From NCBI GenBank assembly GCA_016793965.1, contig JAEULF010000065.1, positions 1-47,428 on the forward strand: DNA of 47,428 nucleotides. Reading direction: 5' to 3'. A model generated the notes under the pieces. That model did not search any database and was not told the DNA's origin. It saw only the letters and a program-made list of their open reading frames with translations. Source of the DNA: Alphaproteobacteria bacterium (GTDB taxonomy: Bacteria > Pseudomonadota > Alphaproteobacteria > JAEULF01). Below, piece after piece: positions 15,106 through 29,419 of this stretch. How positions within the stretch are numbered: position 1 is the first letter of the stretch; each line of letters starts with the position of its first letter. Made by a program: the position numbers and the translations under genes.

Positions 15106-15543
15106 CTACGCGCAGCCAACTAATGCCACCGACAGGCTGCGGGACATATCGATCAGCAGTTGGTCCAGGTTCTCCGCCGGGATCGACAGCGGGTCGAACG
15201 CATCGGATTCGCCATGCTTCAATAGGAGCTGGCGTGTTGCCTCTTGATCGGGGACGTACCCCATCGCCCACGAACCGAAGCTGCGCTTGGCTGTTTCCCG
15301 GATCGACATGAGCGTGACGTCCGTGTGGCGCCGATCGGCGCTGATGCGCCGGAAGGTGCTGTTCACCGCCTTGCGCTCGCCCTCCAGGCACTGCATGAAG
15401 TAGTACCCGTTGAAGGCCAGCATGCCGGTGATGTTGTCCGCCGTGTTGTGCCTGCGGGCCGATTCGAGGATGGCGCCGACGTCGCCAGCGCTCCGAACGA
15501 GCGGATCGACCCGGCTCGCATAGACCAAAGAAACCAAAGCCAC
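15106..15543 (-). CDS. Short BLUF-domain blue-light photoreceptor (FAD-binding)
   Basis: 145 aa with a GTG start and an AAGGGGGA RBS. Contains SLVYASR (Tyr8), HNTADNITGML, FMQCLEGE (Gln51), D.RH and FGSWAM (Trp92/Met94). All canonical photocycle residues appear present, followed by a C-terminal extension of about 45 aa. Confidence 0.85.
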   Translation of the reverse strand: MALVSLVYASRVDPLVRSAGDVGAILESARRHNTADNITGMLAFNGYYFMQCLEGERKAVNSTFRRISADRRHTDVTLMSIRETAKRSFGSWAMGYVPDQEATRQLLLKHGESDAFDPLSIPAENLDQLLIDMSRSLSVALVGCA

Positions 15544-18306: not shown

Positions 18307-19419
18307 TCAGAACATCTCCACGGTGCCTGCGGCCGCCTGAGCGAGAGCTGGAGAGGCAGCCTCGTCGCGCACCACCTGCGCCACGAAGCGCTTGCGCATC
18401 TCGGATAGGGAGAAGTTCTCCAGGATCTCGTTCAGCCAGCGGCGGTCGATCTGCCCGTTCCAATCTTGGGCAGCCGCTTGCGCGCGGGTCTCCTGCTGCA
18501 GAGATGCAAGCGCCTTGCCCAGGATGGCCAGTGTGTCGACGACATGGTCCAGATGCTGCTTGGCACGGTCCTGGAACTGGACCCCGGTGATCATCTTGGA
18601 GACGGTGTCCGACTGGCTGGCCGACGCGGCCGCGACCTCGGCCAGCACCGCTGCGAACTTCCGGTTCTGCTCGGTCAAGCCGCGCATCATCTCGTCCAGC
18701 TGGCCCCGCGCCTTCATGTGCTCGGACAGGTCGATCGTCACGATCTGCCTGAGGATGGCGTGGCCGCGCTGAACGCCGCTCGCAACGTCCGTTATCTGGC
18801 GGCGCATCGTCTCGGCGAGTGCGTTCGTCGTCCTCGACAGCCCGCGCACCTCAGAGGCGACCACCATGAACGTACGGCCGGCATCTCCTGCGCGTTGCGC
18901 CTCGATGGTCGCGTTCAATGCCAAGAAGTTCGTTTGGCGGTTGATCTGCTCGATCTGCGCGATGGACTTCACGGTATTGTCGACCTGCTTCGAGACCTCG
19001 TCGAGCGCCTGCACCATCGTCCCGGCGAACTTGTTCAAGAGCAAGATCGTGTCGATAACCTTGCCGAGAAGCCCCTCGACGAAGCCGGTTATGTCCCCGA
19101 TGGACAGCGTCCGCTCGCCGACGACGACCTTCTCGGCTGCGGCGACGACGTCGCCGAGCAGCGCGGACTGCCGCTGCGACCCTTCGGCCAGCTCCTTGAA
19201 GCGGCGGCTGAGGTCCTCCGTGCTGGTCTCAACAAGGTCCGAGGTCGCAGAGATCTCACGGCAGAGCACGTCGAACGCGCGGCGCTCGAGCTCCGAGAGC
19301 TGGAGCCAGCGGCGCAGCAGGTCGGCAGCTCGGTCGCCGCACTTCGGCTCCGCCGCCTGTGAGGAACCCGCCTCGCTTGAAGCCGGGAGGTCGGACGGCA
19401 TCATCACATCGTAGGGCAT
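18307..19419 (-). CDS. Soluble MCP-signalling-domain protein with no recognisable sensor or TM region
   Basis: Start moved to the ATG at 19419 (MPYDVMM...). 370 aa. Hairpin-tip motif IAQIEQINRQTNFLALNATIEAQRAGDAGRTFMVVASEVRGLS. No hydrophobic segment. The C-terminus is ...GTVEMF. Confidence 0.8.
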   Translation of the reverse strand: MPYDVMMPSDLPASSEAGSSQAAEPKCGDRAADLLRRWLQLSELERRAFDVLCREISATSDLVETSTEDLSRRFKELAEGSQRQSALLGDVVAAAEKVVVGERTLSIGDITGFVEGLLGKVIDTILLLNKFAGTMVQALDEVSKQVDNTVKSIAQIEQINRQTNFLALNATIEAQRAGDAGRTFMVVASEVRGLSRTTNALAETMRRQITDVASGVQRGHAILRQIVTIDLSEHMKARGQLDEMMRGLTEQNRKFAAVLAEVAAASASQSDTVSKMITGVQFQDRAKQHLDHVVDTLAILGKALASLQQETRAQAAAQDWNGQIDRRWLNEILENFSLSEMRKRFVAQVVRDEAASPALAQAAAGTVEMF

Positions 19420-19432
19420 GGCAGTGGCTCGC

Positions 19433-20266
19433 CTAGTGGATGTCTTTGAAGGCACGGGGCTCTCCGCGAGACCGATTGCTGGCCGCCTTCTGCTTGCCGT
19501 GCGGCAGGGCACGGCCACCGTCGGCTCGCGCGTCGAGCCATCTCCTGAAGCCGTCGCACGGCAGCGGCTTGCAGAGCAGGAAGCCTTGCGACATGGCGCA
19601 GCCAAGGTCGTCCATCGGCGCATTCTGGTTGTCGCGCTCGATGCCCTCCGCCACGACGTTCAAGTCCAGCCTGCGAGCGAGGCGGCTGATCGCGTCGGCC
19701 ACTGCTGCGTCCTTTGCGCTCTCGACCACGACCAGGTCGCGGCGCTCGATCGACAGCAGCGCCATCGAGCGTTCGATCGCGGCATCAAAGTCATGCGGCG
19801 CGACGCCGACGAAGGCGGAGATGAACAAGGCAAGGAGCTGCTCGATGTCGGTGCGCTCTTCGAAGGCTCGCATCCGCCGCGCGAGGGCTGCTTTGGCCAG
19901 CCGCGCGTTCTCCACGAGGTGACCGATCTGCCGACATGACGTAGCCTGAGCCATCGGGCTCAGCGCATCGTCCGCGTCTGAGGCCAGGATGCCGGGACGA
20001 AGGCTCAGGATCACAGCATCCCAGAGCGCGACGCATTCGATGACCGTCGTGGCGCCGGCTTGCGGCGTCGGAGCGATCGCCGTGCCTGGCAGGTCGATCG
20101 CCAGCCGCCGTGCTTCACGACCGCTCGCGCGTGCAGAGATCTCGACGGCGCCGTCGACCAGAAGGCGGATTGCGTCCGGGCGATCCAGCACGGCCTGGAC
20201 ATTCGCGCCCGCTGCGCAGCGGCTCGCCACGAAAGCCGGCTCGTTGATGTCGGGCGATTGCGCCAT
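19433..20266 (-). CDS. Stand-alone divergent (probably degenerate) EAL-like domain protein
   Basis: Start set at the ATG at 20266 (MAQSPD..., 277 aa). The C-terminal EAL signature is retained: LNVVAEGIE...LGCAMSQGFLLCKPLP, with 20-aa E-to-Q spacing. EIS replaces EAL, HDFDAA replaces DDFGTG, and LSIE replaces LKID. The upstream 189 codons of the track ORF are Arg/Pro/Ser-rich. Confidence 0.6.
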   Translation of the reverse strand: MAQSPDINEPAFVASRCAAGANVQAVLDRPDAIRLLVDGAVEISARASGREARRLAIDLPGTAIAPTPQAGATTVIECVALWDAVILSLRPGILASDADDALSPMAQATSCRQIGHLVENARLAKAALARRMRAFEERTDIEQLLALFISAFVGVAPHDFDAAIERSMALLSIERRDLVVVESAKDAAVADAISRLARRLDLNVVAEGIERDNQNAPMDDLGCAMSQGFLLCKPLPCDGFRRWLDARADGGRALPHGKQKAASNRSRGEPRAFKDIH

Positions 20267-20479
20267 CGATGTCGCCGATCTCCTGAGTCGATTGCGCCGC
20301 GCGCGTGACACGGGGCGGGTCGTCACGTGCCGCAGCTTCCCAGGTGACCCGGGGCGTCCTGGAGCAGTGTTCAGGCGCCGGATCAGACCTCGGAGCAGCC
20401 TCTCTCGCGCCCGAGCAGCGGCATCGGCCGTCTCGGTGCCCGAGAGCGGGGAAGTTCGCCCCGAGCTGGGAAGGATCCA

Positions 20480-20508
20480 CGAGGCGGCTCCGCTGGGAAG
20501 CCGCCTCG
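20480..20508 (-). terminator. Strong stem-loop 15 nt downstream of the PAS-MCP stop codon
   Basis: On the minus strand, CGAGGCGGCT-N9-AGCCGCCTCG forms a perfect 10-bp GC-rich stem. It is not followed by a U-run, so it could be a terminator, an attenuator or an RNA-processing/stability element. Confidence 0.4.
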
Positions 20509-20522
20509 CGGTCCACAGGAGC

Positions 20523-23255
20523 TCAGAACTCCTTCCAGCTATCCGCAGTCCCGGCGACGGCGCGCTTGCCGGCCGCGGCGCGGGCAGGCTTGACGGTCGG
20601 CATCGGCGTCTGCATGGCACGCGGTCTCTGGCGGCCGTTGCCGTTCGCTCCAGCGGCGTGGGCGTCTCCGCTGTTGCCGCTTGGGCGGCGCGTCCCGTTG
20701 GAGCCAGGTGCATGCACCTCCTCGCCGTTGCCGTTGGTCCGGCGTGGCGCGCTGACTGGCTTGGCGAGCGGCTGCTGCCGCGGCGCCGCGGCGGCACGAC
20801 GGGACGCGTCGCTGTCCTCTTCGGCGCCTTCATCGATCCTGAAGAACTCTATCGTTTGCGTCAGCTGCTCGGCCTGCTGCGTCATCGACTGCGAAGCGGC
20901 CGCGCTCTCCTCGACGAGGGCCGCGTTCTTCTGCGTCATCTCGTCCATCTGGGAGACCGCGGTGTTCACCTGCTCGACGCCAGAGGACTGCTCGGCGCTC
21001 GCTGCAGCGATCTCGGCCACGATATCGGCCACCCGCTTCACCGCCGTGACGATCTCGCCGAGCGTCTCGCCGGCGTTCTTCACCATCTGCACGCCGTCCT
21101 TGACCTGGAGGCTGCTGTCGACGATCAGCGCCTTGATCTCCTTCGACGCCTGCGCCGAGCGCTGGGCCAGCGTGCGGACCTCGGCGGCCACCACCGCGAA
21201 GCCCTTGCCGGCGTCGCCGGCGCGCGCGGCCTCGACGGCCGCGTTGAGCGCCAGCAGGTTGGTCTGGAAGGCGATCTCGTCGATCACGCCGATGATGTCG
21301 GAGATCTTCCGCGACGAGCCCTCGATCTTGCTCATCGCCTGGATCGCCTCGGCGGCGACCGCGCCGCCCTTCTCGGCAGAGGCCCGGGCCCCGGCCGCGA
21401 GCTGGTTGGCCTGCTGCGCGTTCTCCGAGTTCTGCTTCACCGTCGCAGCGAGCTCCTCCATCGAGGCCGCCGTCTCCTCCAGGCTCGAGGCCTGCTGCTC
21501 GGTGCGCGAGGACAAGTCGCTCGCGCCCGACGAGATCTCGGCCGAGGCCGTGGCGATCGTGCGCGTCGCGTCGACGATCCGACCGACGATCTCGGTCAGG
21601 CTTTGCGCCGTGTTGTTCGCGTCGTTCTTGATCTGCTCGAACATTCCCTGGTGGGCGCCCTCGATGCGCCGCGTCAGGTCGCCCTTCGAAAGCCCGTCGA
21701 GGAAGGTCACCACCTCGTCGACGATGCGCTTGGTGGCGAGATCCTGCTCGACCTTCGCCGTGATGTCGGTGGCGTACTTCACGACTTTGAACGGCCTGCC
21801 GTTCACGTCCATGATCGGGTTGTAGCTGGCCTGGATCCAGACCTCCTTGCCGCCGCGCCCGATGCGCTTGTACTGGCCCGTATCGTACTCGCCCCGCCCA
21901 AGCCTGTCCCAGAACAGACGGTACTCGGGGCTCTGCTTGTAGGCAGCCTCGACGAACATGCTGTGGTGCTGGCCGCGCACCTCTTCCAGCGTGTAGCCCA
22001 GCACCTTCAGGAAGTTCTCGTTGGCCGTCAGGATCTTGCCGTCGAGCGAGAACTCGATCGTCGCCTGCGACTTGCTGATCGCAGCGAGCTGACCTTCGAA
22101 GTCCGCGTTGCGGATCTTCTGCTCCGTCACGTCGGTGGCATACTTGACCACCTTGAACGGCTTGCCGTTCAAGTCGTTGATCGGGTTGTAGCTCGCTTGG
22201 ATCCAGACTTCCTTGCCGCCGCGGGCGATCCGCTTGTACTGGCCCGCGTCGTACTCGCCGCGCCCCAGCTTGTCCCAGAAGAGACGGTAATCCGGACTCT
22301 GCCTGAAGGCCGGGTCGACGAACATGCTATGATGCTGGCCGCGCACTTCGTCCAGCGTGTAGCCTAGCAACTTCAGGAAGCTCTCGTTGGCGTGCAAGAC
22401 CTTGCCGTCGAGCGAGAACTCGATCACCGCCTGCGACTTGCCGATGGCCGCGATCTGGCCCTCGAAGTCGGCGTTGCGGGCCTTCTGCGCGGTGATGTCG
22501 AAAGCGTACTTCACCACCTTCACCGGCTTGCCCTTGCCGTCCTTGATCACGTTATAGCTGGCCTGGATCCAGACCTCCTTGCCGCCGCGACCGATGCGCT
22601 TGTACTCGCCCGCGTCGAACTCGCCGCGACCAAGCTTCTCCCAGAACGCCCGGTAGTCCTGGGTCTGGCGATATGCCGGGTCGACGAACATGCTGTGGTG
22701 CTGGCCGCGCACCTCATCCAGCGTGTAGCCCAGCAGCCTCAGGAAAATCTCGTTCGCGGCCTGGACCTTGCCGTCCAGCGAGAACTCGATGGTGGCCATC
22801 GAGCGGTCGATGGCGCTGGCATAGGCCGTGTGGTCGGCGTTGAGCATGCGCTGGGCCGCGTCGGTCCATTCCACGACGGTGCCGATGCGCGCCTGCTTGT
22901 CGTCCAGGAGCGGCGTAGCCACAAGGTCGAACACCCGTCCGCCGACCTTGATCGTGGCCCTGTGGGTGTCCCTCAGTCCGCCCAGCAGGCGATGCTGATG
23001 GCTCGGGTCCTTGTGGAACACGTCGATGCTGGCGCCGATCAGCTTCGACGCATCGAAGCTCGGCAGGTCGCGGCGGATCTCGTCTTGCGCCTCCTTCATC
23101 ATCGCGAGCACGCCCGGGTTCATGTAGACGATGTTGAACTCGGCATCGGCGATCATCACGTTCGCCACGAGCTTGTCGATCGCCGCGAGCTTCACGGCTT
23201 CAACCAGGTTGCTGCTGGAGAAGCCGAACCAAGACGACTTGCGCTGCGCTTGCAT
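20523..23255 (-). CDS. Cytoplasmic methyl-accepting chemotaxis protein with four PAS/PAC domains, a HAMP-like linker, an MA domain and a C-terminal xWxxF pentapeptide
   Basis: 910 aa with no TM segment. One N-terminal PAS precedes three near-identical PAS/PAC units. MA-domain motifs are [21 protein letters not shown] and [44 protein letters not shown] Gly/Ala/Pro/Arg-rich tail ends in DSWKEF. Confidence 0.9.
21756..22823 (-). repeat. Intragenic tandem triplication: three 366-nt (122-codon) PAS/PAC-encoding units
   Basis: The motif IEFSLDGK recurs at residues 156, 278 and 400. The string ccagac(c/t)tccttgccgccgcg recurs on the plus strand at 21837, 22203 and 22569, with exact 366-nt spacing. 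Boundaries are approximate. Confidence 0.85.
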
Positions 23256-23311: not shown

Positions 23312-23854
23312 TCAGTTCTGGAGCTCGGCGGCGGATAGGCTCTTCTGGTCGACCCGATCGAGGCTGAACATGCGATCGAGGGTCAGGAGAGCCACCATCC
23401 GGTCCTCGATCGAAACGAGGCCGCAGAGGAACTTCGCATCCTCGGCGCCGTCCATCTCGGGCACGGGCTGCACCGTCGATCGGTCGATCGACAGGATGTC
23501 GCTGACCGCGTCGACGAGGATGCCGATGACGCGCTCCTTGACGCGCACGATGACCACCACATGCGTCTTGGTGACCTCGGTCTCGCCGCCGCCGAAGCGG
23601 GCGCGAAGGTCGAAGATCGGTACCATCGTGCCGCGGAGGTTGATCACGCCCCGCACGTAGGTCGGCGCGTTCGGCAGCCGCGTCGCCTGCGTCCAGCCCT
23701 TGATCTCGCGAACCTCCATGATGTCGACGCCGTACTCCTCGGCACCGACCTTGAAGGTGATGAATTGATCGGTCTGCGCCGAGGCCTCGGCCTCTTGCAC
23801 AGCGGGCATCGATTGGCCACGTGCCGGGGCCAGGTCGATCTCAGTCACGCTCAT
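23312..23854 (-). CDS. cheW: Chemotaxis coupling protein CheW
   Basis: 180 aa. Motifs QFITFKVGAEEYGVDI, VRGVINLRGTMVPIFDLR and GILVDAVSDIL. Confidence 0.9.
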   Translation of the reverse strand: MSVTEIDLAPARGQSMPAVQEAEASAQTDQFITFKVGAEEYGVDIMEVREIKGWTQATRLPNAPTYVRGVINLRGTMVPIFDLRARFGGGETEVTKTHVVVIVRVKERVIGILVDAVSDILSIDRSTVQPVPEMDGAEDAKFLCGLVSIEDRMVALLTLDRMFSLDRVDQKSLSAAELQN

Positions 23855-23882: not shown

Positions 23883-25961
23883 TCATTGTGCGACGGCAGG
23901 GGAACTGCCGGTCGGGGGCGGCAGGGCGGCAGGCGCGGTCGGCGCAGCGTCCGCCGCCTCCGCTACGCGGCCGAGCCCCGCGAGATCGAGGATCAGCGCG
24001 ACGCGGCCATCGCCCAGGATCGTCGCCGCCGAGATGCCGTCGATCTGGCGATAGTTCGTCTCCAGGCTCTTGATGACGACCTGCTGCTGACCCAGGATCT
24101 CGTCGACGACGAGACCTACCTTCAGGCCGTTCTCGACCTCGGCAACGACGACCAGCCCCCGGCACGGATCGTTGACCGCGTCGGCACAGCCGAAGACCTG
24201 AGCCAGGTAGACGAGGCGGATGTACTCGCCGCGCAGCGCCATGACCCGACCGCTTCCGGCCAGCCGCGCCACGTCGCGCGGCAGCGGGCGCAGGCTCTCG
24301 ACGATGCTGGCGAGCGGCACGATGTAGCGCTCGACGCCCAGCGTCACGATCATCCCGTCGAGCACGGCGAGCGTGAGCGGCAGCGACAGCGTGAACCTCG
24401 ACCCGCGGCCGGGCTTCGAGTCGATGTGGACGCGCCCGCCTAGCGCCTGGATGTTGCGCTTGACTACGTCCATGCCGACGCCACGGCCCGAGATGTCCGA
24501 TACCTTCGATGCCGTGGAGAAGCCGGGCAGGAAGATGAAGTTGTCGATCTCCTCGTCGCTGGGCGCGGCGCCCGGCGCCACGAGGCCCCGCGCGACGCAC
24601 TTCTCGAGAACGCGTCGGCGGTCGATGCCCGCCCCATCGTCCTCCACCTCGATGACGATGCGGCCGCCCCGGTGCCTAGCGGAGAGCAGAATGGTGCCGG
24701 TCCGGGGCTTCCCCGCAGTCACCCGCGCGTCCGGCATCTCGATGCCGTGGTCGAGCGCGTTGCGCACCATGTGGACCAGCGGGTCGCTCAGCTGCTCGAT
24801 GACGGTCTTGTCGACCTCCGTATCCTCTCCGGACATCAGCACGCGCGCTTCCTTGCCGAGCTGGGCCGAGAGCTCGCGCACAAGGCGAGGCATGCGCTGG
24901 AACACCGATTTCACGGGCTGAGCCCGGATCGACATCACGTTCTCTTGCAGCTCGCGGGCGTGCGCCGCCATCTGGCTCAGGCCGGCCGCGAGCTCCGGGA
25001 CGACGTCGCCCTGCACGGCCGCGACCTGCTGGCTAAGCATCGCCTGCGTGATCAGGATCTCGCCGACCATGTTGACCAGGCGGTCGATCTTCTCGATGTC
25101 GACTCGGATCGTGGATTGCTCGCCCGAGACCGGCGCGATGGCGCCCTGGGCCGCCCGATCGGTCTCGGTCGCGCGAGCAAGAGCGGTGGCCGCAGCCGGC
25201 AGCGGCTCCTCTGGTCCATCGGCCGATGTTGGCGGCAGCGGCTCGATCGCGATCTCGCAATCGTCCGCCACGAACTCGAACACCTCGCAGATGCGCTCTT
25301 CGTTCTCGGCTGTCTCGACCTCCAGCACCCAGCAGAGATACATGCCGTCGGGCTCGATCGACGCGAGATCGGGAATCGCGGACGTATCGACGGCGACCTT
25401 GACCGCGCCAAGCGTCCTCAGCTCGCGCAGGAGCAGAAGCGGCTCGTTGGCCTTGCGCAGCAGGTCGCGGCTTGGCGTGAAGCGCACGCGCCAGCGACGC
25501 TTTTGGCGCGGCTCGATCTCGGCGACCCGGCCTGGTCCGGCCGATCGCGGGGATGCCCCGCTCCGCTGCAAGCCGAGCGAGGACTTCAGCGCCGCCAGCT
25601 CGGCCGCCGCCGCCGCCTCATGATTGTCGAGGAGCACGAGCCCGCTCCGGTCGGCCTGCACCAGATCCGCGAGCGTGTCGAGGGCGCGCAACAGAGTCGC
25701 GTGCGATTCGAGGTCGAGCGACGCCTTGCCCGACCGGAATCCGTCGAGCACCGTCTCGAACTCATGCGCGAACTTGACCAGGCGATCGAGGCCGAAGGCC
25801 CCGGCACCGCCCTTGATCGAATGCACCGCACGGAACAAGCCGGCCATCGCCTCGCCGTCCTGCGGATCGTCGCCGAGCGACATCAGGCGCGCTTCCGCGG
25901 ACGACAGCAAGTCGCCGCATTCCTCGAAGTAAGTGCGCTTGAATCGGTCGGTCGGGTCCAT
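23883..25961 (-). CDS. cheA: Chemotaxis histidine kinase CheA
   Basis: Start at the ATG at 25961 (MDPTDRFKRTYFEE...). 692 aa. Hpt H-box AVHSIKGGAGAFG. N-box HMVRNALDHGIE. G1 box VEDDGAGID. G2 box SGRGVGMDVV. C-terminal CheW-like domain. Confidence 0.95.
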   Translation of the reverse strand: MDPTDRFKRTYFEECGDLLSSAEARLMSLGDDPQDGEAMAGLFRAVHSIKGGAGAFGLDRLVKFAHEFETVLDGFRSGKASLDLESHATLLRALDTLADLVQADRSGLVLLDNHEAAAAAELAALKSSLGLQRSGASPRSAGPGRVAEIEPRQKRRWRVRFTPSRDLLRKANEPLLLLRELRTLGAVKVAVDTSAIPDLASIEPDGMYLCWVLEVETAENEERICEVFEFVADDCEIAIEPLPPTSADGPEEPLPAAATALARATETDRAAQGAIAPVSGEQSTIRVDIEKIDRLVNMVGEILITQAMLSQQVAAVQGDVVPELAAGLSQMAAHARELQENVMSIRAQPVKSVFQRMPRLVRELSAQLGKEARVLMSGEDTEVDKTVIEQLSDPLVHMVRNALDHGIEMPDARVTAGKPRTGTILLSARHRGGRIVIEVEDDGAGIDRRRVLEKCVARGLVAPGAAPSDEEIDNFIFLPGFSTASKVSDISGRGVGMDVVKRNIQALGGRVHIDSKPGRGSRFTLSLPLTLAVLDGMIVTLGVERYIVPLASIVESLRPLPRDVARLAGSGRVMALRGEYIRLVYLAQVFGCADAVNDPCRGLVVVAEVENGLKVGLVVDEILGQQQVVIKSLETNYRQIDGISAATILGDGRVALILDLAGLGRVAEAADAAPTAPAALPPPTGSSPAVAQ

Positions 25962-25993
25962 GGGCTGGTCCGCTCCTGATCGTCCCGTCAATC

Positions 25994-26359
25994 TCACGGG
26001 CAGACCTTGGAGACGGTCTGCACAAGCTTCTCGGGATTGAACGGCTTGACCAGCCATCCAGTTGCACCGGCAGCCCGGCCGTCATTCTTCTTCTCCGAAT
26101 CGCTCTCGGTCGTGAGCATCAGGATCGGGGTCGCGCCATAGGCAGCGTTGGCCCGAAGCCGACGGATCAGCTCCAGCCCGTCCATCTCCGGCATGTTGAG
26201 ATCCGTGATGATGCAATCCACCTTGGACTGCGCCAGGGCTTCGAGCGCGTTCTTGCCGTCCGTCGCCTCGACGACCTCATAGCCGGCCTGCCGCAACGTG
26301 AACGCGATCATGTCGCGCATCGTCTTCGAATCATCGACGGTCAGGACGCGCTTACTCAT
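25994..26359 (-). CDS. cheY: Chemotaxis response regulator CheY
   Basis: Start at the ATG at 26359 (MSKRVLTVDDSKTMR...). 121 aa. Motifs IITDLNMPEMDG, LTTES and VKPF. Confidence 0.9.
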   Translation of the reverse strand: MSKRVLTVDDSKTMRDMIAFTLRQAGYEVVEATDGKNALEALAQSKVDCIITDLNMPEMDGLELIRRLRANAAYGATPILMLTTESDSEKKNDGRAAGATGWLVKPFNPEKLVQTVSKVCP

Positions 26360-26669
26360 CGATCTTCCCCCAGAGTTGCAGTTCTTCGGATAGGCCAAGA
26401 TCGTCGAACGCGAGTCGGAACGCCGGCGACGAGGGCCCAACCAGGAGCTCGTGCCCTGCACTGGCCAGCGCCCTTCGCGCCGCGAGGAGGACCTGCACGC
26501 ACGGCGTCGTGATGCGCTCTACGCCTTCGGCGTCTATCGCGATGCGCCGGCCAGCTTTCGACAGTTCGAGAAGTGCCCGCTTGAGCGCCGGCGCGGCGAC
26601 CACGTCGTTGACCGGCGCGAGCCGCAGAGTGTCGAAAGCACGACCCGGTATGATGGAGTACTCTTCCAT
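26352..26669 (-). CDS. Small STAS-domain protein, CheS-like
   Basis: Start at the ATG at 26669 (MEEYSIIPG...). 105 aa with an anti-sigma-antagonist-like layout. Its stop overlaps the cheY start by 8 nt (ATGAGTAA). The position upstream of cheY-cheA matches the rhizobial cheS position. Confidence 0.6.
   Translation of the reverse strand: MEEYSIIPGRAFDTLRLAPVNDVVAAPALKRALLELSKAGRRIAIDAEGVERITTPCVQVLLAARRALASAGHELLVGPSSPAFRLAFDDLGLSEELQLWGKIDE

Positions 26670-29343: not shown

Positions 29344-29419
<76 letters not shown>

Follow-up and report, generated by a model that had tools for sequence, protein, structure and literature searches.

The locus analysed here raises the question of whether a gene for a stand-alone EAL-like protein, situated within a chemosensory operon of an uncultured alphaproteobacterium, encodes a working protein or is what remains of one. 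An earlier note had described the product as an apparently degenerate EAL-like protein, comparable to YdiV and BluF, and had suggested that it could serve as a c-di-GMP-binding or BLUF-binding adaptor. In the window (the whole stretch of DNA analysed, 47,428 nucleotides) the 277-codon ORF was found at the positions given in that note and lies on the minus strand, with its ATG at 20266 and its TAG at 19433–19435; the plus-strand translation of the same interval is packed with stops. The NCBI record for the product, MBL8669601.1, is an ordinary CDS of an alphaproteobacterial metagenome-assembled genome (MAG), labelled 'EAL domain-containing protein', and a look-up of alternative start codons in the protein collection gave the 277-aa form only. 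The proposed location inside a che operon was borne out by the gene order RR-CheA-CheW-PAS-MCP-[MBL8669601.1]-MCP-CheR-CheD-CheB-BLUF (Table 1). As had also been noted, the ORF stops 13 nt before the start codon (ATG at 19419) of a 370-aa protein with an MCPsignal domain only; this MCP has no good Shine-Dalgarno (SD) sequence of its own. The gap between the PAS-MCP gene and the ORF is 256 nt long and begins with a hairpin. A consensus scan gave neither a promoter nor a terminator, and an Rfam search gave a tRNA elsewhere in the window and nothing else.

Table 1. Positions in the window of the ORF, its segments and motifs, and the neighbouring features of the operon
Feature	Positions	Strand	Basis or remark
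ORF MBL8669601.1	19433..20266	-	NCBI annotation; same architecture in L001
MBL8669601.1 codons 1-150, orphan N-terminal part	19817..20266	-	without EAL or other-family similarity
MBL8669601.1 codons 151-249, EAL-homologous segment, from the DDFGTG-equivalent strand to the domain end	19520..19816	-	hhalign 99.5%
H158-D-F-D-A-A163 at the DDFGTG site	19778..19795	-	alignments
L171-S-I-E-R175 at the LKIDR site	19742..19756	-	alignments
A206-E207-G-I-E210, EGVE-type motif kept	19637..19651	-	alignments
S226-Q227-G-F229, QGY-type motif kept	19580..19591	-	alignments
Approximate similarity breakpoint relative to the L007 allele	19726..19740	-	nucleotide identity
MBL8669601.1 codons 250-277, C-terminal tail, low GC3, fast-evolving	19436..19519	-	codon signature, substitutions
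AGGAGA, Shine-Dalgarno-like, 12 nt 5' of the MBL8669601.1 ATG (long spacing)	20279..20284	-	
13-nt spacer from the MBL8669601.1 stop to the MCP start codon	19420..19432	-	one substitution across all four alleles
13-bp GC-rich hairpin directly 3' of the PAS-MCP stop codon	20477..20511	-	-43.4 kcal/mol, z -3.8
Sensorless 370-aa MCP, MCPsignal domain only, directly downstream of MBL8669601.1	18307..19419	-	
Short 145-aa BLUF protein, last gene of the operon	15106..15543	-	98 bits

The resemblance to EAL domains proved to be confined to the C-terminal part of the protein. The Pfam EAL profile (PF00563) matched aa 181–234 with a score of 37.2 bits (gathering cutoff 31.3, E 2.6e-9), showing that the resemblance did not arise by chance, but the match covered only profile positions 182–236 of 236 (55/236). 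Alignment with hhalign extended it to aa 151–249 (probability 99.5%) and the widest pairwise EAL alignments to aa 133–255; matches from the PDB and from an exhaustive phmmer search (11,956 proteins) all fell inside aa 133–276, with none on aa 1–132. Every tool alignment placed H158-DFDAA163 opposite DDFGTG and L171-SIER175 opposite LKIDR, in agreement with the by-eye reading of the earlier note. The LSIER sequence means that the catalytic Lys is gone, its place being taken by Ser172; His158 stands in for the first metal-binding Asp of DDFGTG, while the second is kept (D159), so that the set formed by the catalytic Lys and both of these Asp residues, as expected of an active EAL phosphodiesterase, is incomplete. 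The distal signatures were as described before: V204-VAEGIE210 is followed by S226-QGF, with Q227 20 residues past E207, and E207 (the EGVE Glu) and Q227 (the QGY Gln) stayed aligned throughout the comparisons. The strand-helix-strand core is well conserved. Relative to canonical EAL phosphodiesterases (PF00563; RocR 3sy8, MucR 5m1t, TBD1265 2r6o, DosP), the last ~100 residues of MBL8669601.1 are 40–50% identical to their C-terminal strands and helices and share D159, E207 and Q227-G228, but it is recognisable over only about 55–100 of about 240 domain positions, carries the two substitutions just described together with a deletion of 7–8 residues after HDFDAA (in the canonical GTGYSSLxYL), lacks recognisable EAL, Asn and ExxE motifs, and is predicted to have no closed barrel.

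Most of the residues that contact c-di-GMP normally lie in the N-terminal half of the EAL domain (the Q of YQP, E-x-L-x-R and N). In the N-terminal 150 residues of MBL8669601.1 no EAL signal was detected: hhalign against the EAL N-terminal half scored 12.3, the same as shuffled sequences (12.4±2.1); PSSM Smith-Waterman comparison gave z values of 0.7–1.1, no better than shuffles, versus ~50 for the C-terminal half; and tblastn against 80 EAL loci gave no match for this part. MAFFT did place faint EAL-like motifs there in the canonical order (P68, E77-x-V-x-x-W82, P91, A98-D99 and C111-R-Q), which are not statistically significant, and it set E77 (of E77-C-V) opposite the EAL Glu, the Asn and ExxE strands falling in gaps, in an alignment no better than chance. 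Thus, no supported alignment supplies the EAL Glu, the NxS Asn or the ExxE Glu of an active phosphodiesterase, and equivalents of the N-terminal c-di-GMP contacts could not be identified in the sequence. Because these 150 residues behave like shuffles, three details of the earlier note lose their footing, all of them resting on an unsupported by-eye alignment: the replacement of EAL by EIS (no alignment puts E42-I43-S44 on the EAL motif, and MAFFT prefers E77-C-V), the statement on the Asn of the NLS position, and an E-to-Q span 15 residues shorter than usual. A frameshifted EAL N-terminal half was considered and discarded, since six-frame hmmsearch with the EAL HMM and six-frame Pfam scans of 19790–20530 gave zero matches.

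Nor was another known domain found in this half, in Pfam at E ≤ 5 or in NCBIfam; a homology search with the N-terminal part by itself gave zero matches, an unreliable null because the same search also missed the known identical P0001. With the full-length protein, neither the best 150 of the 11,956 matches (1.8 billion cluster representatives) nor a word-indexed search of 5.8 billion clusters produced a full-length homologue other than one sequence, 97% identical, that belongs to a near-identical strain. The MBL8669601.1 frame has the coding-type order GC1 > GC2 < GC3, unlike off-frame windows. In codons 1–129 (19880–20266) the GC signal across codon positions is weaker: GC3 is 0.77 versus 0.90±0.04 in the neighbouring genes, and GC3-GC2, at 0.22, lies under that of 99.8% of real-gene windows and over that of all off-frame windows, as expected of a once-coding sequence in decay.

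Structure prediction agreed with this division of the protein. A single-sequence model was useless (pLDDT 38.7), and AF2 supplied with an EAL MSA was confident for aa ~170–250 only, with pLDDT 32–43 for aa 141–167; no confident barrel or N-terminal domain appeared in the AF2 models. Foldseek comparison to EAL structures gave TM values of 0.40–0.46 with rmsd above 10 Å, that is, no EAL-like closure, and even these matches are weak evidence, because the EAL MSA biases the model toward EAL. Taken with the shuffle-like N-terminal half, the partial AF2 confidence and the low TM values indicated that a complete ~240-residue (beta/alpha)8-type domain is not present. The earlier description of a non-catalytic, degenerate EAL-like protein therefore holds for the C-terminal third (Ser172, His158 and the deletion) and not for the N-terminal 150 aa; the likeness to full-length degenerate EAL domains of the YdiV, BluF, FimX or LapD type falls away, as the N-terminal half is not detectably EAL and there is no confident barrel.

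Three related metagenome contigs (L001, L006 and L007) were found, which together with the window provide four alleles in two lineages, three of the four being partial or near-identical. Two scans of genome contigs and two metagenome scans gave no close relative. A locus in a Rhodomicrobium MAG (L002), considered as a syntenic relative, turned out not to be syntenic, and the homologues of the MCP at 49–56% identity adjoin partner-switching genes, with no EAL beside them. L001, from an independent Logan assembly (run SRR14271370), matches the window in structure over 3.1 kb, at 99.27% nucleotide identity with zero indels. This run represents the lineage of the window (lineage A), and runs SRR15669519 and ERR13655531 the sister lineage (lineage B). 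In both, the 277-codon frame runs without a stop or frameshift, and the position of its stop is common to all four alleles; the gene thus does not have the disrupted frame of a pseudogene. An artefact of assembly or annotation, affecting the whole ORF or just its odd 5' half, might be suspected because the sequence comes from a MAG and because long spurious ORFs are common at high GC. We rejected assembly artefact because the independent contig agrees, and the coding-type GC pattern in the ORF frame and a Pfam match over the curated cutoff also speak against an artefact, which we consider extremely improbable.

The sister lineage, represented by L007, carries SSLSYLRRLPVDTLKIDRSF at this locus, with the canonical LKIDRSF where the window has LSIER. 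The window and L007 are 87–97% (about 94%) identical at the nucleotide level downstream of a breakpoint at about codon 176; upstream of it some 40 nt, interrupted by a 3-nt indel, are ~70% identical, after which the two are unalignable. L007 provides 121 codons of its allele, on a 2-kb Logan contig, of which 24 residues (73 nt) lie upstream of the breakpoint, and an assembly chimera at its canonical 5' end is formally conceivable. Compared over an identical span of 74 aa, the Pfam EAL score was 48.1 bits for L007, 39.3 for the window and 37.9 for L001; over 121 aa, the scores were 83.7, 39.0 and 37.7, respectively. The fit of the window lineage to the EAL model is eroded relative to the L007 allele.

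The abrupt loss of identity could instead mean that the window allele is a recombinant, in which a canonical EAL 3' fragment (codons ~176–277, common to lineage B) was joined to a 5' sequence that is unrelated or highly diverged, the N-terminal 150 residues being a new domain. The absence of any family match in the N-terminal half, the unlike GC3 of the two halves and the invariance of the N-terminal half between the window and L001 would all fit such an origin. However, degenerate but colinear EAL similarity (HDFDAA and LSIER) continues past the breakpoint toward the N terminus as far as about aa 151 (aa 133 in the widest alignments), showing that foreign DNA was not simply joined on at the junction; the MAFFT motifs, although not significant, hint at common descent, AF2 gave no confident N-terminal domain, and the direction of an exchange is not readable from 73 nt. 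We regard recombination as an unlikely source of the window allele.

Substitutions between the alleles bear on whether the protein is under constraint; the two lineages and four alleles supply just 10–24 substitutions for estimating dN/dS. Between the window and L006, the ORF tail had 21 nonsynonymous and 3 synonymous changes (dN 0.111, dN/dS point estimate 2.3), versus 21 and 34 in the adjacent MCP gene (dN 0.0255, dS 0.1365), a difference indicating relaxed selection on the tail (Fisher p = 5.7e-5); under the omega of the MCP, the probability of at least 21 nonsynonymous changes out of 24 is 5.7e-7. Tested against neutrality the tail gave p = 0.14, and is thus compatible with neutral change, dN/dS being not significantly above 1. 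The last 29 codons had 12 nonsynonymous changes and 1 synonymous change between the lineages. Between the window and L001, the ORF had 9 nonsynonymous changes and 1 synonymous change versus 4 and 6 in MCP plus CheR (p 0.057), and these 10 changes in 834 nt equal the ~1.2% synonymous divergence of the neighbouring genes. Among the recent replacements at conserved positions are L217P and D224A in the window and V204D and P236S in L001, of which V204D (a charge in a core strand) and L217P (a Pro in a helix) look destructive.

The changes are not spread evenly. The ten changes that separate the window from L001 all sit in codons 130–247, and codons 1–129 have none where about 2–5 were expected, a clustering that uniform neutral decay does not explain. 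In addition, the block of 36 residues from M218 to L254, which includes FRRWLDARADGGRAL, has two differences between the lineages, fewer than the neutral expectation; part of the branch in this comparison is that of the sister allele, which is presumably functional.

With only the last third of the domain, key catalytic residues lost and evolution that resembles that of unconstrained sequence, the protein is most likely a decaying remnant and not a new adaptor. Our favoured reading, to which we give somewhat better than an even chance, is that MBL8669601.1 is an inactive gene remnant undergoing erosion, derived from a solo EAL (c-di-GMP phosphodiesterase) gene formerly part of the chemosensory operon. 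The ancestral state would have been a stand-alone EAL gene among the che genes, of which the window lineage keeps ~100 recognisable C-terminal residues. We infer that its product cannot hydrolyse c-di-GMP, and it probably cannot bind it either; because change proceeds at a roughly neutral rate, the gene appears to be free of purifying selection. The open frame may persist simply for want of time since decay began, or may have been kept because termination 13 nt short of the SD-poor start of the MCP helps translation of the MCP through coupling. Counted against a remnant were the intact frame in two independent assemblies and the stop common to four alleles; the conserved M218–L254 block, the invariant codons 1–129 and the clustered differences; and the small number of alleles, with the 5' end of L007 on a short contig. 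Like bacterial pseudogenes and remnants with an open frame, MBL8669601.1 combines a partial domain and the loss of essential residues with a dN/dS close to 1, a profile score that has dropped compared with its orthologue and a weakened codon-position signature; it differs from pseudogenes in having no stop or frameshift, in its NCBI annotation as a normal CDS and in the conservation of some blocks.

The role proposed in the earlier note would make the same protein a functional, catalytically dead EAL-derived adaptor that binds c-di-GMP, BLUF or the downstream cytoplasmic MCP, modulates the receptor array and evolves fast for adaptive reasons. An intact frame with an SD-like element, tight linkage to the MCP gene and persistence of the ORF in two strains are consistent with function, as are the retained D159, E207 and Q227, the conserved core, the invariant 129 N-terminal codons and the point estimate of dN/dS above 1; and there is precedent in the complex of a short BLUF protein with a solo EAL protein, PapB-PapA (PMC8846402), and in the coupling of a phosphodiesterase to the chemotaxis apparatus (PMC3861689). 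Set against these are the want of identifiable N-terminal c-di-GMP contacts and of a confident fold outside aa 170–250, a dN/dS that does not significantly exceed 1, the destructive-looking V204D and L217P, the lack of full-length homologues in the searches above save in the near-identical strain, and the drop in EAL-model fit relative to the sister allele. Our analysis gave the adaptor or c-di-GMP-sensor role no positive support, and both the ratio of nonsynonymous to synonymous changes and the eroded Pfam fit disfavour it; we think it improbable.

In FimX, LapD, YdiV and BluF/YcgF, degenerate EAL proteins that act as receptors or adaptors, the EAL-like fold is complete, and purifying selection has conserved these proteins across species. 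Like them, MBL8669601.1 is an EAL-derived protein that has lost catalytic residues, and it may be connected with motility or light signalling, but two thirds of its domain is unrecognisable, and it occurs in a single strain-level lineage, where it evolves near-neutrally. On the remnant reading, if correct, the locus is an ordinary case of a gene in decay and should not be passed on as a novel c-di-GMP or BLUF adaptor; a Pfam match over threshold and the label 'EAL domain-containing protein' can mask a protein with about one third of the domain left. It would also be a decay caught in the act, two strain-level lineages of one uncultured alphaproteobacterium having the EAL gene in canonical and in eroded form, and this difference suggests a recent loss of c-di-GMP input to, or output from, the chemosensory pathway. 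Should the adaptor reading be true, it would establish a new kind of link between the sensing of blue light, c-di-GMP and an array of cytoplasmic chemoreceptors.

The PapB-PapA complex of Rhodopseudomonas palustris, in which a short BLUF protein (PapB) associates with a solo EAL protein (PapA) (reviewed in PMC8846402), is a close parallel to the operon: both have an alphaproteobacterial short BLUF gene and a stand-alone EAL gene in one transcriptional neighbourhood. In the window, however, MCP-CheR-CheD-CheB part the two genes, and the EAL partner is eroded and, by its motifs, catalytically dead. It is conceivable, though we hold it very doubtful, that the operon ancestrally houses a PapA/PapB-like module and that the window allele, under diversifying selection, has switched from catalysis to binding of BLUF or the sensorless MCP as a minimal adaptor made of the C-terminal strands and a lineage-specific N-terminal domain. 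An ancestral module of this kind would imply light-regulated c-di-GMP turnover at the cytoplasmic receptor array. By analogy with PapA, the sister-lineage allele with LKIDRSF could be a light-regulated phosphodiesterase partner of BLUF.

The 277-codon frame at 19433-20266 proposed in the earlier note is real, but it lies on the minus strand, from ATG at 20266 to TAG at 19433-19435, and not on the plus strand, where the same interval contains several stops. The NCBI annotation of the contig (JAEULF010000065.1, 47,428 nt; the source MAG bears the label 'Alphaproteobacteria bacterium') holds the same 277-aa product as MBL8669601.1, 'EAL domain-containing protein'. The distal motifs quoted in the note were present and aligned as claimed: H158-DFDAA falls on DDFGTG, L171-SIER on LKIDR, E207 lies within AEGIE, and Q227, 20 residues further on, within SQGF. 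The Pfam EAL search it had proposed gave a significant, though partial, match (37.2 bits; gathering score 31.3) that spanned only aa 181-234, equivalent to profile positions 182-236 of 236. With 27 aligned complete EAL domains as the reference, hhalign covered aa 151-249 (probability 99.5%), and phmmer against PDB sequences matched at most aa 136-260. An exhaustive phmmer search of 1.8 billion cluster representatives returned 11,956 matches; the best 150 all lay inside aa 133-276, and the only full-length relative among them was a 97%-identical protein on a Logan metagenome contig (P0001). We concluded that aa 151-249 belong to the EAL family and that the whole product fails as a complete EAL domain and as an active phosphodiesterase; as far as sequence can tell, its motif loss shows that it cannot be an active phosphodiesterase.

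For the N-terminal 150 residues, Pfam and NCBIfam gave no match, hmmsearch yielded nothing significant (its top local score was -1.8 bits, with a conditional E of 0.08 at Z = 1), and the hhalign score against the EAL N-half was 12.3 (shuffles 12.4±2.1). PSSM Smith-Waterman gave the N-terminal part a z of 0.7-1.1, the positive control (C-half) reaching ~50, and it drew a blank with tblastn against 80 EAL-encoding metagenome loci (best E 0.83, on the wrong strand). An EAL N-half concealed in another reading frame was ruled out, the other frames being empty too. The first 152 aa also drew no match in a word-indexed homology search, an unreliable result given that even P0001, whose first 129 residues are identical, was not returned. 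When the product was aligned with 38 EAL proteins by MAFFT, faint N-half motifs fell in canonical order (R53-R-x-A-I-D…P68 on LRxAl…YQP, I76-E77-C-V-A-L-W82 on vEALlRW, P91…A98-D99 on P..Fi..AE, and C111-R-Q113 on aCRQ), with the product gapped at the Asn and ExxE strands; because these motifs did no better than chance in shuffle tests, we take them as a possible hint of common descent only. The equation of EIS with EAL, made by eye, was recovered by none of the methods.

In AF2 predictions the product reached a pLDDT of 38.7 from the single sequence and a mean of 58.8 with the EAL alignment as MSA, an input biased toward EAL. In the latter model aa ~170-250 alone reached 77-85, with aa 141-167 (the HDFDAA region) at 32-43 and the N-half at 34-67. 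Foldseek returned EAL structures, but the fit was so weak (TM 0.40-0.46, rmsd >10 Å) that a complete EAL barrel is unsupported. Because the N-half contacts are unidentifiable and no barrel is predicted, the product seems unlikely to bind c-di-GMP.

We compared the window's allele of the ORF locus with those on three Logan contigs, L001, L006 and L007. L006 and L007 differ at only 5 of 1,516 nt and were therefore counted as one sister lineage; its MCP has 95% protein identity to that of the window, and its upstream ORF stops at the same site, 13 nt ahead of the MCP. L007, which reaches 24 codons upstream of the end of L006, carries there SSLSYLRRLPVDTLKIDRSFIVDIVENSKDAAV, which is canonical for EAL and includes the catalytic Lys; the window sequence differs at this point. 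Nucleotide identity between the window and L007 was 87-97% downstream of ~19726; upstream, a stretch of ~40 nt containing a 3-nt indel kept ~70%, and further on the two were unalignable. The same 74 residues scored 48.1 bits against Pfam EAL in L007, 39.3 in the window and 37.9 in L001, and 121 residues scored 83.7, 39.0 and 37.7, respectively. From the canonical L007 sequence and the lower scores of the window, we concluded that a close relative holds a canonical-looking EAL gene here and the window lineage an eroded version. Across the junction the EAL alignment stays colinear and keeps its frame, which makes an assembly chimera in L007 appear unlikely. The 5' difference may stem from decay, from recombination with a divergent copy or from a replacement in the sister lineage. 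The L006 contig end (L006:1 = window 19702) lies 24-38 nt from where window and L007 (L007:1-73) cease to be alignable, and could mark an assembly-graph branch between two 5' variants present together in that sample.

GC1/GC2/GC3 was 0.68/0.45/0.90 in neighbouring genes and 0.69/0.44/0.87, typical of them, in ORF codons 130-248. Codons 1-129 gave 0.74/0.55/0.77, their GC3-GC2 lying below 99.8% of 441 real-gene windows and above every off-frame window, and the signal was similarly weak in the last 29 codons; this is what once-coding sequence under slackened selection looks like. L001 (SRR14271370, 3,136 nt) shares 99.27% identity and the ORF-MCP-CheR order with the window, without indels. Ten of its 23 differences fell in the ORF (9 nonsynonymous, 1 synonymous), as against 2N:4S in the MCP and 2N:2S in CheR, and 10 changes in 834 nt equals the synonymous divergence of the neighbours (~1.2%). 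Between the window and L006, the 89 shared ORF codons gave dN 0.111 and dS 0.049 (21N:3S), whereas the MCP gave dN 0.0255 and dS 0.1365 (21N:34S; Fisher's exact p = 5.7e-5); the ORF pattern was compatible with neutrality (p = 0.14) but not with the omega of the MCP (p = 5.7e-7). These numbers, small as they are, showed the ORF sequence to change at a roughly neutral rate. With the sister lineage used to polarise the changes, the acquisition of L217P (Pro in a helix) and D224A could be assigned to the window, and that of V204D (which charges the VVAEG strand), P236S and R247L to L001.

All 10 ORF changes between the window and L001 lie within codons 130-247 (19526-19879), with none in codons 1-129 or 248-277, an unexplained clustering (post-hoc probability ~2e-4 under uniform placement) that may reflect a recombination patch or local hotspot. 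The clustering, the invariant N-terminal 129 codons, the intact frame and a conserved 36-residue block speak against a decaying remnant and would suit either a functional adaptor, as the earlier note had it, or a chimera. FimX, LapD, YdiV and BluF, degenerate EAL proteins that act as receptors or adaptors, keep the entire fold and are conserved, unlike the product here. What the earlier note had seen is thus confirmed in part; of its interpretation, the degeneracy is upheld, but the adaptor role is unsupported and we think it improbable. That the ORF is a chimera is likewise doubtful. It is most economical to read the ORF as what remains of a solo EAL gene in decay; it would then join the eroded or degenerate EAL genes already known, and its product is already annotated as an EAL-domain protein. 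The frame of such a remnant may have stayed open by chance, given the rarity of stops at ~69% GC and the small divergence, or else its translation may supply ribosomes to the MCP start, which has no good SD (TAGGCGAGCCACTGCC-ATG). Among known systems that pair a short BLUF protein with a solo EAL protein, PapB-PapA of Rhodopseudomonas palustris (PMC8846402) comes closest, and the canonical sister allele could be of this kind.

The neighbours of the ORF are all on its strand, and its distance from the sensorless MCP gene is as the earlier note had it.

Features of the che operon around the EAL-like ORF, with the tRNA gene of the window
Feature	Position	Strand	Remark
tRNA gene	29347-29419	-	sole Rfam match in window
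Response regulator	25994-26461	-	operon neighbour
CheA	23883-26057	-	operon neighbour
CheW	23312-23854	-	operon neighbour
Triple-PAS-HAMP-MCP	20523-23255	-	upstream of ORF
256-nt gap	between PAS-MCP and ORF	-	strong hairpin at its start
ORF, EAL-like	19433-20266	-	after 256-nt gap
13-nt spacer	between ORF stop and MCP start	-	
MCP, 370 aa	18307-19419	-	signalling domain only; downstream of ORF
CheR, CheD, CheB	between 370-aa MCP and BLUF gene	-	
BLUF protein, 145 aa	15106-15543	-	last operon gene; Pfam 98 bits, full profile

The hairpin (20477-20511; 13 bp, GC-rich, without a U-tract) stands directly 3' of the PAS-MCP stop codon, at -43.4 kcal/mol for its 71-nt context (z -3.8), and could be a terminator, attenuator or mRNA-stability element dividing ORF-MCP-CheRDB-BLUF from the upstream part of the operon. 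In the PAS-MCP, three tandem PAS domains and HAMP are followed by a low-complexity linker of ~100 residues and the C-terminus …DSWKEF, an xWxxF-type pentapeptide resembling NWETF, by which E. coli receptors tether CheR/CheB. Outside the strain, the sensorless MCP has its closest homologues, at 49-56% identity, in L005:1223-4609 and a GCA_041447055.1 contig. After them come STAS, HATPase_c_2 and RR-SpoIIE partner-switching genes, the opposite strand carries CheB-CheD-CheR, and an EAL gene is absent; this family of soluble MCPs may act on non-flagellar outputs. The CheB-BLUF gene order recurs in a further Logan contig (L088), and the window BLUF is stand-alone. CheW has 165 aa in the NCBI annotation; a 180-aa form, starting at ATG 23854 behind a good AGGAGG Shine-Dalgarno, is the one in the Logan gene calls.
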